A stretch of 47,343 nucleotides of DNA from Cytophagales bacterium (GTDB lineage: Bacteria > Bacteroidota > Bacteroidia > Cytophagales > UBA9547). Location: assembly GCA_046152935.1 (NCBI GenBank), contig JBJXGB010000208.1, forward strand, positions 1 to 47,343. The letters are read 5' to 3'. Shown piece after piece: positions 5,590 to 11,464 of this stretch. Each line of letters starts with the position of its first letter. Positions within the stretch are counted from its first letter, which is position 1. The notes under the pieces are model-generated. The model was given only the letters and a program-made list of their open reading frames with translations, was not told the DNA's origin and did no database searches. The position numbers were made by a program, and so were the translations under genes.

Positions 5590-6615
5590 CTAGAGCATTG
5601 CTTTGATTATGAAAAAGGCATTTATAAGCACATAAGTAGAAGCTATTATTTTAAATGCTTTCATGTCGGCTGCTACCAGTTCTTTGATTCCAGACTTGTA
5701 TGCGGCTGGCTTTACTACATATATGTTGATAGCAGAGTACAAAATAATCAAAAATATAAAGATAAATGTAACCGCATGAAGAATGTCGGCAAGGGTGAGC
5801 GAATTTACATTTGGCAACAATGCATCTACAAAATATTTATTTCCCACAGCGGCAAATAAGCTACCTACAGGCAGCGAAAACCGCGTGCTCAGATCACGTG
5901 GATGCACAAACAGAGAAATAATCGCGATAAAAAAGCTCACATAAAGGCCCGTAAAGAGTTTTAAAAATAAGAAACCCACTTCACGCTGCACGTCTACCGT
6001 GGCCACGACTCTGTCAAAGGCTTCTTTGTTTTTGAGAGCTTTGGGGTTGCCAAAATTATTGTTGTATTTGTGTTGCTCGTGGGCAATATGAAAGTTTGAT
6101 TTTATCTTTATTCCGTTGATATGCAGGTTGTTATCAATGCCAGATTTTGAAAATGGCGTTTCAGAAAGTATGAATTTTAGCCTGCGTTTTTCATTTTCAG
6201 CATCTTCAAATTTGAGGTGCAATACCTGGTTATCGAAAGGAAAATCACGTACATCAAAATCATTTCTGATTTTGGCCGACACCTTTTTGAGTACGTAGAA
6301 ATCGTTTTTGAGCGAACTGTCAATTTTCACGTACGATTCGGCAACTTCACCATTGTATATGTTGAGGAGATTTACTGTTTTCAATGGATTTAGCCCAAAT
6401 TGTTTAGCATATTCTTTCCGATAAACATACCAAACCCAAAAATCGACACCGAAATAATTTTCCTGCAACTTAATATCGTGAATCGAAGTGATATAAATTC
6501 CCATTGTTACCGTTTTTGCCAACTCTTTAGGCTTTTGTGTTTTTGAAAATCCGCAGAAATAGTTGAAGAAACAAAAGCAAAAAAGAAAGATTAAGATAAA
6601 ATGTTTTTGCTGCAT
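5590..6615 (-). CDS. Prokaryotic pentameric ligand-gated ion channel (GLIC/ELIC-like Pro-loop receptor)
   Basis: Signal peptide; beta-rich extracellular domain (VTMGIYITSIHDI...FGVDFWVWY); Pro-loop DVRDFPFDNQ; four C-terminal hydrophobic helices with an LP in the M2-M3 loop. Confidence 0.85.
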   Translation of the reverse strand: MQQKHFILIFLFCFCFFNYFCGFSKTQKPKELAKTVTMGIYITSIHDIKLQENYFGVDFWVWYVYRKEYAKQFGLNPLKTVNLLNIYNGEVAESYVKIDSSLKNDFYVLKKVSAKIRNDFDVRDFPFDNQVLHLKFEDAENEKRRLKFILSETPFSKSGIDNNLHINGIKIKSNFHIAHEQHKYNNNFGNPKALKNKEAFDRVVATVDVQREVGFLFLKLFTGLYVSFFIAIISLFVHPRDLSTRFSLPVGSLFAAVGNKYFVDALLPNVNSLTLADILHAVTFIFIFLIILYSAINIYVVKPAAYKSGIKELVAADMKAFKIIASTYVLINAFFIIKAML

Positions 6616-6760
6616 TGGAATTTACTAGTCAGAGTTCAAGTCTTTAAAATTACTAATCGAGATCGATTCGATGACTGCAAGTTGTTAAATAATAATTAAT
6701 TAGAGCTTTTTTGTTTCGAGTTGAAAAAACAAATATTTTATTTTGATCTTGCAATATCAT

Positions 6761-6768
6761 TATATTTG
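6761..6768 (+). promoter_or_regulatory. Bacteroidota -7 promoter element TATATTTG for the leader/mbnPH operon
   Basis: Exact match to TAnnTTTG followed by CA. It lies inside the track ORF, so the real start is probably downstream (TTG at 6787). Confidence 0.6.
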
Positions 6769-6786
6769 CAGCGAATTTATAAGTTT

Positions 6787-7176
6787 TTGAAAAGCACGCG
6801 CACAAACTTTCGATTTTTTTTGGCAAGTACTTTGCTATCGGTCTATTTGATGTGTTCGTTTAAGATGTACACTCCGTATATCAATTATAAAATCAACTAT
6901 AAATATATAGCAGGCGTGCTTTGCGAAAACAAAGCAAAACCCAAAATGCAATGCAACGGCAAATGCCACTTAAAAAAGGAACTGAAAAAAGCAGCAACTG
7001 AAGAATCCAAAAGCAAAGCTGAGCTAAAAAATATTGAGCAAGAAGAATTTTTAGAGATAAATGTGTTTTTGTTGCATAATTTTCAATTTATCGCTGAAAA
7101 CCAATTGTATTTTTTCCATTCAAATAGATATGCTTCATTTTCTTTAGAGCATATTTCCCCACCGCCACAGGCTTAG
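6787..7176 (+). CDS. Small membrane-targeted Cys-motif protein ending in PPPQA; putative metal-responsive leader (CruR/CutF/DUF2946-like architecture)
   Basis: N-terminal hydrophobic segment, CENKAKPKMQCNGKCHL, a charged linker and C-terminal HISPPPQA. First gene of the metal operon. The start codon is uncertain (track gives 6721). Confidence 0.7.
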   Translation: MKSTRTNFRFFLASTLLSVYLMCSFKMYTPYINYKINYKYIAGVLCENKAKPKMQCNGKCHLKKELKKAATEESKSKAELKNIEQEEFLEINVFLLHNFQFIAENQLYFFHSNRYASFSLEHISPPPQA

Positions 7177-7293
7177 TTTCATTTTGTAAATTTTAGTATT
7201 TTTTGGTGATTCGGTTACTAACCGTCATTAAAGTTTTTGTGCTATTATTTATTTGTCAAAAGAAATATTTATTCATTTTTAATTCTCGAGAAT

Positions 7294-8388
7294 ATGAACA
7301 GCAACCTGCAAAGGCTATGGCTTCTGTTTACCATATTTGGCGTTTTCTTATTAGTAAGAGTTGAGCCTTTATTGGGACAGAACGCTGAATCTGCAAACGA
7401 TAAACATGGCTCGTGCCATTCGCACGATCAAAGTCCAGTTGGAGTAATGTTTAGCCACATTCATCCTTCAAAAAGTTTTATGTTTTCTTATCGATTTATG
7501 TCGATGGCTATGAATGATAAGTTGAGTGGAACCAGAAATGTAGCTGATAATGAGGTGTTTACCAATTATTTGATGTTACCAAAACAAATGCGAATGGATA
7601 TGCACATGCTAATGGCAATGTATGGCTTATCAAACAAAATCACATTGATGGCAATGGTCAATTACAATGTGTTTTCGATGGAAATGAGCATGCTTCCGAG
7701 CAATGCAAATGCCAGCAGTTCGCATTCTCAGCACAACCATTCCGACCACGACCACATGGCGATGAAAACCTCTGGCATTGGCGACACAAAACTGTATGTT
7801 TTGTATGATTTAATTCAGAAAAACGAGTACCAGTTTTTATTGAATTTTGGTGTTAGTATTCCTACTGGCGATATAAATATTGCTGGAAATGAGGCAAATA
7901 TGTACCCTTCATCTCGTTTGCCATACTCGATGCAATTAGGCTCTGGCAGTTATGAATTATTGCCAGGAATCACTTACAGTACCAAATTTCGATCTATTTC
8001 CGCTAGTTTACAGGCATTGTATATTCATCGAATACATGCCAATTCTGTTGGTTACAGGCTTGGAAATGAATGTGTTGCAAATGCTTGGGCTGCTTATCAG
8101 TTGACTAAATGGCTAAGTTTTTCAATGCGAGCAGAAGGCATATTTTCTAGTCCAATTCGCGGTGCAGACAATTCAATTTATTACTTATCTGAGCCAGCAG
8201 CAAATACGGCTAATTATGGTGGGCAGAAAGTCAATGCTTTCGGAGGCCTGAATTATTTTCCCAAAATAGGTTTTTTGCAAACTGCAAGATTGTCGCTAGA
8301 ATATGGGCTGCCAGTATATCAAAATTTAAACGGCATTCAATCTGCTACTTCTGGTACGTTAATAGCTGGATTGCAAGTCGATTTCTAA
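7294..8388 (+). CDS. His/Met-rich outer-membrane beta-barrel protein (plug-less transporter-like)
   Basis: Signal peptide; HGSCHSHD-SPVGVMFSHIH, MRMDMHMLMAMYG and HSQHNHSDHDHMAM; GIGD motif; alternating strands; terminal Phe (GLQVDF). Confidence 0.75.
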   Translation: MNSNLQRLWLLFTIFGVFLLVRVEPLLGQNAESANDKHGSCHSHDQSPVGVMFSHIHPSKSFMFSYRFMSMAMNDKLSGTRNVADNEVFTNYLMLPKQMRMDMHMLMAMYGLSNKITLMAMVNYNVFSMEMSMLPSNANASSSHSQHNHSDHDHMAMKTSGIGDTKLYVLYDLIQKNEYQFLLNFGVSIPTGDINIAGNEANMYPSSRLPYSMQLGSGSYELLPGITYSTKFRSISASLQALYIHRIHANSVGYRLGNECVANAWAAYQLTKWLSFSMRAEGIFSSPIRGADNSIYYLSEPAANTANYGGQKVNAFGGLNYFPKIGFLQTARLSLEYGLPVYQNLNGIQSATSGTLIAGLQVDF

Positions 8389-8418
8389 TCTTTACTAATT
8401 ATTTAATCTTCTAAAAAA

Positions 8419-9189
8419 ATGAAAAAATTAAATTTATACCAACTCATGCTTGGCATTTTTGTCTTTTACACATTGAATTGCTGTAAAGATAAAGACAATA
8501 CTGCTACACCAATAGCTCCCACTGGTTCGCTGGAATTTCACATCCACACTAATGTGGGCAATAGCGAAGTAGAAGAATATGGTGTTGAATATTATGCCAA
8601 CAACAGAAAAATGATTATCGTCAAGTCTCAAATGTATATTTCTGGCATAGAGCTTGTAAAATTAGATGGCAATATTGTGAATGCACCCAACCAGTCTTTT
8701 TTGATTGAAAATGCAAACGATGAGTATAAAATTGTGAATTTGCCCGTTGGTAATTATCGCTCGATTAGATTTTATGTTGGGTTAGATGAAATTACCAATC
8801 AAAAAAAAGCGGGTATTTCAGATACACTTATTAATAGAGCTGATATGTGGTTTGGCAACAGTGCAGAACCAAATAAATATGTGTTTTTAAATTTTCAAGG
8901 CTCAATAGACACCACAGATGCGAAAAATGGTAGCACTTTGGTGAATTTTGACTTTAAAATAGGCACTATTAGCAATAGAAAGCAAGTTTTCATGCCAGAT
9001 CTCAATTTTACAATTGCTGCTAATCAGATCGCAGTTTTACACATGGCAGCCGATTACAATCGGCTCTTTGATGGCATTAATCTAACTAATAATGGGAATT
9101 TGATACTAAATACGACATCTGATAATTCAAGTGATCTTGCGGCCAAATTGGTGTCGAATATTTCGTTGGTGCTAGACTATGAAAAGTAA
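8419..9189 (+). CDS. MbnP-family lipoprotein, paralogue 1 (lacks the WxW motif)
   Basis: Lipobox Cys followed by KDKD; YISGIELVK; PVGNYRSIRFYVGLD; DMWF...YVFLNFQG. Visibly paralogous to the next gene. Confidence 0.7.
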   Translation: MKKLNLYQLMLGIFVFYTLNCCKDKDNTATPIAPTGSLEFHIHTNVGNSEVEEYGVEYYANNRKMIIVKSQMYISGIELVKLDGNIVNAPNQSFLIENANDEYKIVNLPVGNYRSIRFYVGLDEITNQKKAGISDTLINRADMWFGNSAEPNKYVFLNFQGSIDTTDAKNGSTLVNFDFKIGTISNRKQVFMPDLNFTIAANQIAVLHMAADYNRLFDGINLTNNGNLILNTTSDNSSDLAAKLVSNISLVLDYEK

Positions 9190-9279
9190 GGTTATCGGTT
9201 AAATACCTACTAATTTACTTCTGACAATTACATTTACTCAAAATCCAATCTTAATTCAAATTTTAACAAGAAAACGAAA

Positions 9280-10056
9280 ATGAAAAATACATTCAAATTT
9301 GCATCTACAATAGCTTTAACAGTTTCATTATTAACAAGTTGTACAAAAAAGGAGGACCAACCAGCACCAGTTTCTACTCCTCAGACCCAGAAAGTATCGC
9401 TCAACTTTAGTCATGTGGCTGGTGATAAAACTGTAAATTTCGCAGACGTTTTTACCTCAACTAAGGGTGCAAAATTTACACTTAGTATGTTTCGATATTA
9501 TGTGTCAAATGTTCGTTTCGTAAAAGCGGACAATACCGAACAGACAGTTCCTGGAACGTATTTTTTGGTAAGTCCAAACAATCCAGTTTGTGATTTGGGT
9601 CAAGTGCCTGTGGGCGATTACAAGGGTGTCAAATTTGCTGTGGGAGTCGATTCTGTCACCAACCATGCCGATATTACAAAATACCCAGCAAGCAATCCAT
9701 TGGCCGTGCAAAGCCCGGGCATTCACTGGAGTTGGAATAGTGGCTATATTTTTGTGATGGTGGAAGGGACGGTCGATACAACTGCTGGCAACATCGATGT
9801 ATTGACTTTTGGCCAGTATTCAAAAGGTATGTTTTTTCATTTGGGAACAGATAAATTGTATAAAAAAGTCGAACTTTTGCAGCCAATATCAGTTAAAAAA
9901 GAAGGTGAGAAAACTGTTTCTATCAAAACAGACATAAATACCTTATTCGCCAATATTGATCTGAAAACCCAAAATGCAACGCATACATTTTCCAACAATT
10001 CAATAGCAACGTTAGCTGGCGCAAATATTCCATCGATGTTTTCAATTGCACAATAA
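9280..10056 (+). CDS. mbnP: MbnP-family copper-binding lipoprotein, paralogue 2
   Basis: Lipobox LTSC; FRYYVSNVRF; PVGDYKGVKFAVGVDSVTNH; HWSWNSGYIF (WxW); FHLG; adjacent to a di-heme enzyme gene. Confidence 0.85.
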   Translation: MKNTFKFASTIALTVSLLTSCTKKEDQPAPVSTPQTQKVSLNFSHVAGDKTVNFADVFTSTKGAKFTLSMFRYYVSNVRFVKADNTEQTVPGTYFLVSPNNPVCDLGQVPVGDYKGVKFAVGVDSVTNHADITKYPASNPLAVQSPGIHWSWNSGYIFVMVEGTVDTTAGNIDVLTFGQYSKGMFFHLGTDKLYKKVELLQPISVKKEGEKTVSIKTDINTLFANIDLKTQNATHTFSNNSIATLAGANIPSMFSIAQ

Positions 10057-10125
10057 CAGAGGCTATTTGCCGTATTGTTGATTGAAATGACGTATCTACT
10101 TTGATTTACAATTTATCACGTAAAG

Positions 10126-11202
10126 ATGAATTATTTAGCAAAATACATCAGCCGACCCTTTTGGTCGGCTCTTTTTTACACTCTTTTTAATAAAAATAGG
10201 TCAATACTTCCAATTGTAGTACTGATTCTGGTAAGTGCTTGTAAAAAAAATGAAGTATTGGACGAATTGGGTAGTAAAACAGACGATGCTGGCAGTAAAA
10301 CTATTCAGCTCACTGTTCCAAAAGGTTTTCCATATCCCGAAATTCCTTTAGACAATTTGCCCACCCAAAATCGGATAGATTTGGGTAAAAAGCTGTTTTT
10401 CGACCCAATTTTATCCCGCGATTCTACTATTTCGTGTGCTTCGTGCCACCATACAGACAAGTTTTTTACTGATAATCAGAAACTTAGCAAAGGTATCGAT
10501 GGGCGATTGGGCAAAAGAAATGCTACCTCACTTATAAATGTGGCTTATTTGACTGATATATTTTGGGATGGGGGAGTTCCCAATTTAGAGCAACAGGTTT
10601 TGGCACCTATTGAAGACCACACCGAAATGGATTTTGATGCCAATAAAGTAGTGGAAAGGTTAAAAAAGCATTCAAATTACTCAATATTGTTTCAGAAAGC
10701 ATACCAACAAGAGCCAACAATTTTTGCATTGACTAGAGCTATTGCTTGCTACGAACGCACTTTGATTGGCGGCACCTCGAGATTTGACCGTTTTTTGAAT
10801 GAAAATGACAGTTCTGCTCTTTCTGAGTCAGAAATTAGAGGTCACAATTTGTTTTTAAGTGAAGATGGTGAATGTTTTCACTGCCACGTTGGATTTAACT
10901 TCACAGATAACAGCTTTAGAAACAATGGTTTGTATCGTACATATCCAGATTCTGGCAGGGCTCGAATTACCATGGATGATGCCGACATTGGCAAATTTAA
11001 AGTGCCTTCGCTCAGAAATATCACCAAAACAGCACCATATATGCACGATGGAAGTTTGGCTACGCTCGATCAAGTTTTAGATCATTACATTAGTGGTGGC
11101 AAACGCCATCCCAATAGAAGCCCGATCATAAAGCCGCTGCCGCTTAATTTGAAGCAAAAGCAAGACATTATTAATTTTCTTTCTTCCCTTACAGATGAAT
11201 AA
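10126..11202 (+). CDS. mbnH: Di-heme cytochrome c peroxidase/MauG-family enzyme (MbnH-like), lipoprotein
   Basis: CASCH and CFHCH heme motifs, LGKKLFFDPILS, FWDG, FKVPSLRN-TAPYMHDGS, VLDHY. Confidence 0.88.
   Translation: MNYLAKYISRPFWSALFYTLFNKNRSILPIVVLILVSACKKNEVLDELGSKTDDAGSKTIQLTVPKGFPYPEIPLDNLPTQNRIDLGKKLFFDPILSRDSTISCASCHHTDKFFTDNQKLSKGIDGRLGKRNATSLINVAYLTDIFWDGGVPNLEQQVLAPIEDHTEMDFDANKVVERLKKHSNYSILFQKAYQQEPTIFALTRAIACYERTLIGGTSRFDRFLNENDSSALSESEIRGHNLFLSEDGECFHCHVGFNFTDNSFRNNGLYRTYPDSGRARITMDDADIGKFKVPSLRNITKTAPYMHDGSLATLDQVLDHYISGGKRHPNRSPIIKPLPLNLKQKQDIINFLSSLTDE
10150..10177 (+). terminator. Intrinsic-terminator-like hairpin inside the 5' end of mbnH
   Basis: AGCCGACC-ctttt-GGTCGGCT (8-bp perfect stem) followed by CTTTTTT. 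Confidence 0.6.
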
Positions 11203-11247
11203 TTGGAGAAATACGGAATTAAATTTAAGTTGAAAAACCATCTTAAA

Positions 11248-11278
11248 AAATAAAGCCCTGATAATCAGGGCTTTATTT
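11248..11278. terminator. Bidirectional terminator between mbnH and tRNA-Leu
   Basis: AAATAAAGCCCTGA-taa-TCAGGGCTTTATTT. Confidence 0.85.
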
Positions 11279-11288
11279 GTAGCTTAAG

Positions 11289-11372
11289 TACCCAGAGCCG
11301 GAGTCGAACCGGCACGAGTGTAACCTCATTGGTGTTTGAGACCAACGCGTCTACCGATTCCGCCATCTGGGC
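11289..11372 (-). tRNA. tRNA-Leu (anticodon CAA), CCA not encoded
   Basis: Reverse complement GCCCAGATGGCGGAATCGGTAGACGCG-TTGGT-CTCAAAC-ACCAA, long variable arm, GCCGGTTCGACTCCGGC-TCTGGGTA. Confidence 0.96.
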
Positions 11373-11394: not shown

Positions 11395-11409
11395 GGAGTG
11401 CAAAATTAG
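11395..11409 (-). promoter_or_regulatory. -7 promoter element (TAATTTTGCA) of tRNA-Leu
   Basis: CTAATTTTGCACTCC on the minus strand; the same 15-mer precedes tig. Confidence 0.75.
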
Positions 11410-11464
11410 AGAAACTGCTCTAATTCACAAATTTTATTTTTTTATTTTTTATTGAGGGGCCATA

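Follow-up and report, generated by a model that had tools for sequence, protein, structure and literature searches.

Routes by which copper crosses the outer membrane are known for few bacteria, and they comprise TonB receptors of the OprC type, general porins and the receptors for methanobactin. To our knowledge, nothing is established on this crossing for the Bacteroidota, a phylum that dominates many soils, waters and guts, and whose members carry copper-hungry enzymes. In this work we analyzed five head-to-tail genes located on the plus strand, at positions 6787-11202, of a 47,343-nucleotide stretch of DNA from a Cytophagales bacterium (contig JBJXGB010000208.1; hereafter the window); these genes encode a small cysteine-containing leader, an outer-membrane barrel, two MbnP-like lipoproteins (MbnP1 and MbnP2) and an MbnH-like di-haem enzyme. 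We conclude that they probably form a copper-handling envelope operon, of a type that is widespread in Bacteroidota, which most likely acquires copper without a chelator or TonB.

The closest described counterparts of the last three genes are those of Methylosinus trichosporium OB3b, in which an MbnP-fold protein (7L6G) adjoins a di-haem MauG-like enzyme, MbnH (6E1C). The copper site of MbnP is formed by a histidine, a methionine, a water molecule and a kynurenine that derives from a tryptophan of the WxW motif (PMC11951088, a review). When a methanotroph loses mbnP or mbnH, copper-bound methanobactin has been reported to remain extracellular, and a participation of MbnPH in the release of copper from methanobactin has been suggested (PMC13729199). 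For the barrel, the nearest described proteins are the COG4313 channels, represented by Pput2725 (4RL8), where the lumen is occupied by the 14 N-terminal residues; a barrel of 12 strands with its N-terminus inserted has been described as leaving a very narrow lumen (PMC4493636).

The leader resembles two small proteobacterial proteins that control the expression of the genes downstream. In Bordetella pertussis, CruR carries a CXXC motif, 45 residues and the sequence RAPP three residues before its end; in the presence of copper the stall is relieved, and termination by Rho follows. The genes encoding CruR head operons that include a TonB receptor, PepSY_TM, Sco, PCuAC and MbnPH-like genes (PMC9426467). 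In Rhodobacter capsulatus, CutF has a Sec signal, a CxxxC motif and a proline-rich C-terminus (PMC9973294); in this case, copper prolongs the stall, which unmasks the ribosome-binding site of the next gene (PMC9973294; bioRxiv 10.1101/2025.02.05.636593). Ozturk et al. reported 5,334 CutF-like proteins, of which 19% belong to Bacteroidota, a share that may include the leader family described here; such leaders most often precede efflux genes, and some of them appear to be tied to other metals (PMC9973294).

The evidence that ties the operon of the window to copper is strong but indirect, and comes from the genes that surround the relatives of the barrel. Across 401 genomes sampled from the phylum, in which adjacency was read from the coordinates by eye, the subfamily of barrels that shares a ladder of methionines with that of the window is present in 20 genomes, any barrel of the type gathered in alignment A2 in 68, MbnP in 95 and the leader in 141. 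The context of the Met-ladder barrels was inspected in 17 of the 19 sampled genomes other than the host, G000 (G176 and G340 were left out), and in three genomes of the host's family. In one family (f32), the 13 loci show without exception the order leader, barrel, SCO1/SenC and PCuAC; SCO1 and PCuAC are chaperones for the assembly of cuproenzymes. A TonB receptor accompanies the barrel at two Met-ladder loci, with PepSY_TM and DUF2911 behind it in one and DUF2911 also present in the other, and no metal gene was seen beside the barrel at loci L038 and L051. In the family of the host, the three orthologous loci all have a leader, a barrel and, directly after it, a gene of the MbnP1 type; one of them carries an MbnP2-type gene and MbnH 2.7 kb further on, and another has no MbnH within 8 kb. 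At a locus of the same family (L036), a 130-aa protein with a weak match to PSCyt1 (7250-7642, minus strand; E 5e-4) follows the MbnP1-type gene, at the place where the window has MbnP2 and MbnH.

The association of these genes is not confined to the Met-ladder barrels. In 24 genomes, the host among them, a barrel and an MbnP match are found on the same strand at most about 2.1 kb apart, and in two more at 4.6-6.1 kb; at least 33 genomes have a leader upstream of MbnP, or of a barrel-MbnP pair, at a distance of about 1 kb or less. From 17 MbnP-barrel loci that were fetched, 11 have the order leader, MbnP, MbnH, barrel, and two have that of the window, i.e. leader, barrel, MbnP(, MbnP), MbnH(, MbnH); the remaining four include two in which the genes are adjacent but no leader was matched, and two in which the barrel is several kb away from MbnP. 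The leader is the first gene in 13 of the 15 adjacent cassettes. The first-pass annotation of the window had presented the operon as a candidate new system, for which conserved synteny was to be looked for: cassettes of leader, MbnP, MbnH and barrel recur across the phylum, and the idea of a one-off design is not borne out, given that at least 33 of the 95 genomes with MbnP have a leader just upstream and 24 a related barrel no more than about 2 kb away. Judged from these arrangements, the window joins two modules, one formed by leader, Met-ladder barrel and MbnP1, and the other by MbnP2 and MbnH.

With regard to the direction of transport, uptake appears likelier than defence because of the SCO1/PCuAC and the TonB/PepSY partners, the precedent of CruR and the phenotype of the methanotroph mbnP and mbnH mutants. 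A role in defence, in which the barrel and the MbnPs would clear copper from the periplasm or lock it away, as PcoB/CopB-type systems do, and the leader would activate the operon when copper is high, in the same way that CutF acts on CutO, is in our estimate unlikely. This alternative is kept alive by several neighbours and precedents: of the 13 f32 loci, 7 have a CDF efflux gene just upstream of the leader and 12 have DUF411 in the vicinity, and a CusA/CzcA-type pump is near one alphaproteobacterial homologue; furthermore, CutF-like leaders mostly precede efflux genes (PMC9973294), and the leader of the window ends in PPP, closer to CutF than to CruR. Nevertheless, the CDF gene precedes the leader and is thus outside the leader-headed unit, and the genes that follow the barrel in the 13 f32 loci encode assembly chaperones. 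The TonB/PepSY partners, as well as the CruR operons with MbnPH-like genes, are of the uptake type, and copper-bound methanobactin that stays outside a methanotroph lacking mbnP or mbnH points to acquisition (PMC13729199).

The architecture of the operon agrees with the outline given by the first-pass annotation, which had described five co-oriented genes in a single unit without mbnABC and without a TonB-dependent receptor. The five open reading frames (ORFs) were confirmed on the plus strand, behind an intergenic TAnnTTTG motif and before a 10-bp hairpin (Table 1). Family-model searches revealed no TonB-dependent receptor within the five-gene unit; in the host genome (279 contigs, 100% complete by markers), there were 0 matches to MbnB (PF05114) and 0 to MbnC (TIGR04160), the latter being a weak negative as the control was matched in 0 of 14 control genomes, and MbnA was not searched. 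In contrast with OB3b, therefore, the operon is accompanied neither by a match to methanobactin synthesis nor by an MbnT receptor. The independence from methanobactin synthesis, the single unit and the lack of a TonB receptor are thus supported, and so is the tie to copper, in this case by the conserved neighbourhoods.

Table 1. Features of the operon and of its boundaries (positions in the window)
Feature	Position	Strand	Description
Candidate promoter TATATTTG	6761..6768	+	TAnnTTTG match, 19 nt 5' of the leader TTG; consensus match only
Leader ORF, 129 aa	6787..7176	+	Membrane segment, C-x9-CNGKC, 64 residues, S-P-P-P-Q-A-stop; PPP codons 7159-7167
Spacer hairpin	7202..7241	+	7202-7232, 13 pairs, 2-nt bulge, then GUUUUUGUG (U-run); in the 117-nt leader-barrel spacer
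Outer-membrane 12-stranded barrel, COG4313/PF13557 type, 364 aa from ATG	7294..8388	+	His segment SPVGVMFSHIHP, Met ladder QMRMDMHMLMAMYG, His-rich loop SSHSQHNHSDHDHM
MbnP1 lipoprotein, without WxW	8419..9189	+	PF20243 E 5e-21, 75.8 bits (cut-off 27)
MbnP2 lipoprotein, canonical type, H-W-S-W and F-H-L-G	9280..10056	+	PF20243 E 3e-41, 142 bits (cut-off 27)
MbnH-like di-haem bCcP/MauG lipoprotein, CASCH and CFHCH	10126..11202	+	PF03150 E 3e-54, 184 bits
mbnH internal hairpin	10150..10170	+	8-bp GC-rich stem then CTTTTTT, codons 9-15; unique in the genome
Terminal hairpin	11252..11274		Perfect 10-bp stem with a loop of 3 nt, bordered by T-rich sequence on either side; separates mbnH (+) from tRNA-Leu (-)
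tRNA-Leu(CAA)	11288-11372	-	

The barrel had been described as rich in histidine and methionine, and this holds: 23 Met and 13 His account for 36 of its 364 residues, which places it at the 99.5th percentile of the 2239 ORFs of at least 150 aa in the genome. Its AlphaFold model, obtained from 54 sequences, has a predicted local distance difference test (pLDDT) value of 90.5 and superimposes on the COG4313 channel 4RL8 with Z 25.6 and a root-mean-square deviation of 2.6 over 253 of 267 residues (model residues 50-364 on chain residues 2-268), and on FapF with Z 24.9; FapF and 4RL8 were also the top matches in Foldseek. The segment that precedes strand 1 of the model aligns with the lumen-filling N-terminus of 4RL8. 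The earlier description of this barrel as plug-less is therefore wrong, because the model matches a fold that has its N-terminus in the lumen. In the 54 sequences of alignment A2, P48 of this segment is invariant, and G50 and H57 are nearly so. The strands after the inserted segment carry the ladder M99-x-M101-x-M103-H104-M105-x-x-x-M109, in which M99 and M109 are invariant, and M101, M103, H104 and M105 are conserved in at least 90% of the sequences. We propose a path through the barrel that runs along the Met ladder and the inserted N-terminus, which would bind metal.

The predicted structure is thus similar to that of Pput2725, with 12 strands and an N-terminal segment in the lumen; in contrast, the Met ladder, the N-terminal extensions that bear His or Cys, and the copper-chaperone neighbours set these barrels apart from the described COG4313 channels. 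PcoB/CopB (7PGE) is likewise a small outer-membrane barrel with a Met/His-rich region that has been proposed to pass copper; membership in this family was considered and rejected, since its match to the model (Z 12.7, rank 20) reflects a generic barrel likeness and it belongs to a different family. A word-indexed search yielded 427 homologues of the barrel, the closest with 59% identity and some of them with PF13557, and an exhaustive search 2117 cluster representatives; when genome contigs were searched with the single barrel protein, only two distant alphaproteobacterial loci were retrieved. A profile of the family gave nothing meaningful against the sequences of the PDB (FapF, E 0.48). The barrels located beside MbnP-MbnH at loci L054-L070 form a sister subfamily that lacks the Met ladder and has an invariant Cys in a CDxCGC-type motif right after the signal peptide. 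The comparison of both subfamilies points to two metal-binding solutions on one barrel fold.

The characterised COG4313 channels have been linked to the uptake of hydrophobic molecules, and tied to trichlorophenol or sphingosine (PMC4493636). This function raises the alternative that copper enters through the barrel bound to a small ligand, organic or hydrophobic, such as a foreign chalkophore or a fragment of it, from which the MbnPs would strip the metal, a case of piracy and not of ion uptake; the suggested role of MbnPH in releasing copper from methanobactin (PMC13729199) would fit with this idea, and so would the fact that the DNA of the operon was found solely in four biofilter metagenome DNA runs, all from one study, with no RNA run listed for it. 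We regard it as quite improbable, given the very narrow lumen reported for a 12-stranded barrel with an inserted N-terminus (PMC4493636), the nature of the conserved residues (Met, His and Cys), which are typical direct metal ligands, and the partners present in other families, SCO1 and PCuAC, which are chaperones of ions.

The first-pass annotation assumed that both MbnPs share the chemistry described in methanotrophs, and proposed profile searches for MbnP and bCcP/MauG. These searches matched both MbnPs to PF20243 and MbnH to PF03150 (Table 1), and the assumption is compatible with MbnP2, in which HWSW aligns with AWNW and FHLG with VHVG of 7L6G, so that the WxW motif and the His are kept. 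It is not supported for MbnP1, which has MWFG: this protein and its nine closest relatives show MW[FL] or MFF in place of WxW and lack the 7L6G-type His. In this subfamily, H41, H43, M143 and H208 are invariant, and W144 is conserved in at least 90%. The only significant PDB matches of the MbnP1 model are to 7L6G (E 2e-8, template modelling score 0.46-0.49). The proteins of the window also differ from those of OB3b in being lipoproteins, in the presence of the second, WxW-less paralogue, and in that MbnP1 and MbnP2 have two Cys each, the lipid Cys included, in place of the four-Cys motif that appears in the molecule name of 7L6G.

The best solved relative of the MbnH-like enzyme is MbnH itself, 6E1C, matched over its full length (residues 62-358, E 9e-51), ahead of the peroxidases, to which the enzyme is also closely related (1IQC, E 3e-43). 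The closeness to peroxidases leaves room for an operon that serves another metal, or a peroxide/redox defence built on a cytochrome c peroxidase, as does the report that some CutF-like leaders appear to be tied to other metals (PMC9973294); in addition, the TonB receptor beside one of the barrels has the ZnuD type as its best model, with 184.7 bits, far under the cut-off. This alternative is very unlikely in our view: the combination of Met ladders, His and Cys speaks for Cu(I), the partner genes (SCO1, PCuAC and DUF411) belong to copper families, and MbnH and MbnP, the best relatives of solved structure, have no known chemistry other than that of a copper site.

A lipobox is readable in MbnP1, MbnP2 and MbnH. 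It had been noted that the residues after the lipid Cys resemble the signal for surface export in Bacteroidota, which has been defined as C-X-K-(D/E)2-X (PMC5080379). The resemblance is partial: the sequence reads C-T-K-K-E-D in MbnP2, where the acidic pair comes late by one position, C(C)-K-D-K-D in MbnP1 and C-K-K-N-E in MbnH; several relatives show clearer acidic runs after the lipid Cys, e.g. SCKDDDD. A complex model with the MbnPs had also been proposed, and was run for MbnP1. Prediction of the barrel together with MbnP1 gave an ipSAE interface score of 0.59, against 0.02 for the best control, with contact agreement between runs of at least 79% and a partner pLDDT of at least 84; this lends weak support to a complex. 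Of 80 solved complexes, 58 attained the mark, against 2 of 110 mismatched pairs, and the passing values at or below 0.60 comprise only 7 of the 80 and both of the passing mismatches.

Within mbnH, no canonical in-frame start codon is present between the internal hairpin and the lipobox; therefore, the signal region encoded by mbnH seems to extend over 39 residues and to hold a terminator-like element. This hairpin may act as an internal attenuator that tunes the amount of MbnH against that of the MbnPs. The host genome has three MbnP genes. The third one belongs to a second MbnP-MbnH module on another contig (locus L071, G000:C225, 213-3367), which encodes MbnP3 (with WxW), MbnH2, whose signal peptide is of the ordinary kind, and a YHYH protein that bears a sorting domain of the type IX secretion system, followed by TerC; neither a leader nor a TonB receptor was found in this module.

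The frame of the leader is open from position 6721, and TTG at 6787 gives an N-terminus of the MK type like that of its relatives; this start was inferred from the conserved N-terminal segment, and the public gene callers chose a later ATG. In an alignment (A1) of the small ORFs beside related barrels, which are upstream of the barrel in 17 of 18 loci and in a different order in one, an N-terminal hydrophobic segment is conserved, C, C-x-G-x-C and PP are invariant, and little else is kept. The family can thus be written as C-x(8-11)-C-x-G-x-C, a spacer of 64-70 residues, and PP 2-4 residues before the stop codon. The Cys motif is present in 32 of 34 leaders, with 64-70 residues from the last Cys to the last PP, and in 30 of these 32 the PP is at 2-4 residues from the stop; many members of A1 also have a His-rich stretch after the Cys motif. 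Using a profile search, the family was detected in 68 of 180 genera of the sample, and the host genome has one copy. Two loci have two leader-family genes about 2 kb apart (L054, 588-950 and 2967-3338; L064, 5168-5536 and 7645-8007). Several genomes have two or three copies overall, and therefore the family heads further operons.

The first-pass annotation had noticed the small Cys-containing first gene, which stands; it had not recognised in it a peptide of the arrest type, as CutF and CruR are, with a Cys motif, a spacer and a terminal PP. A CutF-like protein has been defined operationally by a size below 150 aa, a PP within the last 15 residues, a signal peptide and a neighbour on the same strand at no more than 1000 nt (Ozturk et al. 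2023; PMC9973294). The leader of the window has fewer than 150 aa, a signal/transmembrane segment, a Cys motif and a PP in the last 15 residues, and is the first gene of a same-strand metal operon. With CutF and CruR it shares the position in a copper operon, the N-terminal membrane segment, the Cys motif (CxxxC), the fixed spacer and the C-terminal prolines. In contrast, its family has a third invariant Cys upstream of the motif, ends in S/T/H-P-P(P) without Arg-Ala, has a spacer of 64-70 residues versus the 45 of CruR, and is followed by a COG4313-type barrel or by MbnP. From these features, the leader seems best called CutF/CruR-like by design and not by membership in DUF2946. In the Protein Atlas, the nearest clusters of the leader are unnamed Bacteroidota proteins; DUF6660 reached only 0.88 and was taken as a lead and not as a finding.

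In the RNA that follows the leader, the region 7130-7310 folds with z = -2.8, and pairing is possible between the start region of the barrel gene and the last part of the leader ORF, at its 3' end. After 30 leaders, the spacers measure from 0 to 244 nt (minimum values, as the downstream start was set at the first start codon); 15 of them are shorter than 100 nt, and the other 15, of at least 138 nt, are strongly structured. It has been reported that the ribosomes of Bacteroidota do not use Shine-Dalgarno pairing (PMC9976891), and therefore the mechanism of CutF cannot apply unchanged.

The small Cys protein could instead be a stable product, which would work as a copper chaperone anchored in the membrane or as an accessory subunit of the barrel system; in our view this is less likely than regulation by arrest. 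The missing Arg of RAPP, the lack of a sequence relationship to DUF2946, the spacers, half of which are short and which share no common RNA element, and the His-rich stretch of many members, as might be found in a metal-binding protein, are in agreement with this role. It is harder to reconcile with the terminal PP and the constant distance from the Cys motif to it, which is spanned by poorly conserved residues, since this pattern is expected for an arrest peptide and not for a folded domain; likewise, the Protein Atlas model of the leader is poor (predicted template modelling score 0.38), and the gene holds the first position in most of the cassettes.

If the operon acquires copper, as we favour, the leader would be translated first and inserted in the membrane, where the cysteines of CxGxC would sense copper; its C-terminal PPP would stall the ribosome, and the supply of copper would in this way set the expression of the downstream genes, as occurs for CutF and CruR in Proteobacteria. 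The 12-stranded barrel would pass copper ions over the outer membrane along its inserted His N-terminus, the Met ladder and the His-rich loop. MbnP1, which lacks WxW, has its own His/Met set and is always encoded beside this barrel, would take the metal at the barrel, and MbnH would oxidise a tryptophan within the MbnP2 WxW motif, yielding kynurenine; the second copper site that results, similar to that of methanotrophs, would serve to deliver or buffer the metal. In its complete form, this would be a pathway for the import of copper over the outer membrane without TonB or a chalkophore, with a COG4313 channel as the ion path (Met ladder and metal-binding N-terminus), a docked WxW-less MbnP with a His/His/Met/His site that does not need kynurenine, a kynurenine-type MbnP behind it, and a copper-sensing PPP arrest peptide specific to Bacteroidota. 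We put this full scheme forward tentatively, as clearly less secure than the general assignment to copper acquisition.

Several observations, in addition to the efflux-related neighbours and the hydrophobic substrates mentioned above, weigh against this assignment. MbnP2 and MbnH score under the NCBIfam cut-offs: for TIGR04052, with a cut-off of 140 bits at the equivalog level, MbnP2 reaches 64.8 bits and MbnP1 16, and the best NCBIfam match of MbnH, TIGR04039 (MbnH family), reaches 287.7 bits for a cut-off of 362.85. MbnP2 has Ile before WxW, where at least 90% of its relatives have Met, and the barrel of the window has no match to PF13557 at E<=0.01. None of 19 members of the leader family matches any family of Pfam or NCBIfam at E<=1, DUF2946 (PF11162) included; the leader has S-P-P-P and not R-A-P-P, the spacer within the peptide is not that of CruR, and no conserved intrinsic terminator was found in the RNA spacers after the 30 leaders, where only four weak candidates were found and the length varies as described. 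Finally, the distribution is patchy: clear orthologues of the barrel are present in 3 of 21 genomes of the same family, and are absent in the one genome of the same genus.

The operon is flanked upstream by genes encoding a PEP (phosphoenolpyruvate) carboxylase and a ligand-gated-channel-like protein, and downstream by tRNA-Leu and trigger factor. The channel-like gene (5590-6615, minus strand) is divergent from the operon and encodes a protein similar to pentameric ligand-gated ion channels (TIGR00860, E 2e-11, under the cut-off); no link to the operon was seen. TAnnTTTG, which we take to be the -7 promoter motif of Bacteroidota, occurs three times on the plus strand of 6400-11300, and the copy before the leader is the only one that is intergenic. 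A TTTG at 6742-6745 is located 15 nt upstream of it; a search for the -33/-7 pattern with a gap of 17-21 nt gave no match in the promoter region of the operon because of this spacing of 15 nt. The generic scans performed no better than on shuffled sequences, either for sigma-70 promoters (25 promoter-like sites, 19.3 expected) or for terminators (5 terminator-like sites, 3.8 expected). The terminal hairpin is common to the operon and to the tRNA-Leu(CAA) gene, which face each other head-on, and a -33/-7 promoter-like match is present upstream of the tRNA gene (11401-11431, minus strand).

Every part of this operon is of a known kind, and the combination of a COG4313-type copper barrel that replaces the TonB receptor, an MbnP without WxW and a leader of the arrest type was not found described in the papers searched. 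In the searchable literature we did not find the cassette; the surveys in the primary MbnPH papers (Kenney 2019, Manesis 2021), which lay outside this search, may list such operons. In the same literature, nothing among the papers listed combines MbnP with Bacteroidetes, Bacteroidota or Flavobacterium, and among those listed on MbnP together with MbnH none is on Bacteroidota; COG4313 or the 'MetA-pathway of phenol degradation' combined with copper returned nothing on copper transport, as judged from titles and the beginning of abstracts, and copper, PCuAC and outer membrane in Bacteroidetes returned only unrelated work.

The operon and its relatives, present in about a tenth of the sampled genomes, constitute a defined and testable candidate route for copper in a phylum of wide distribution. 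The leader family provides a large set of candidate metal-sensing arrest peptides in Bacteroidota, and the pair of MbnPs with and without the kynurenine motif offers a natural comparison for the purpose of this modification.

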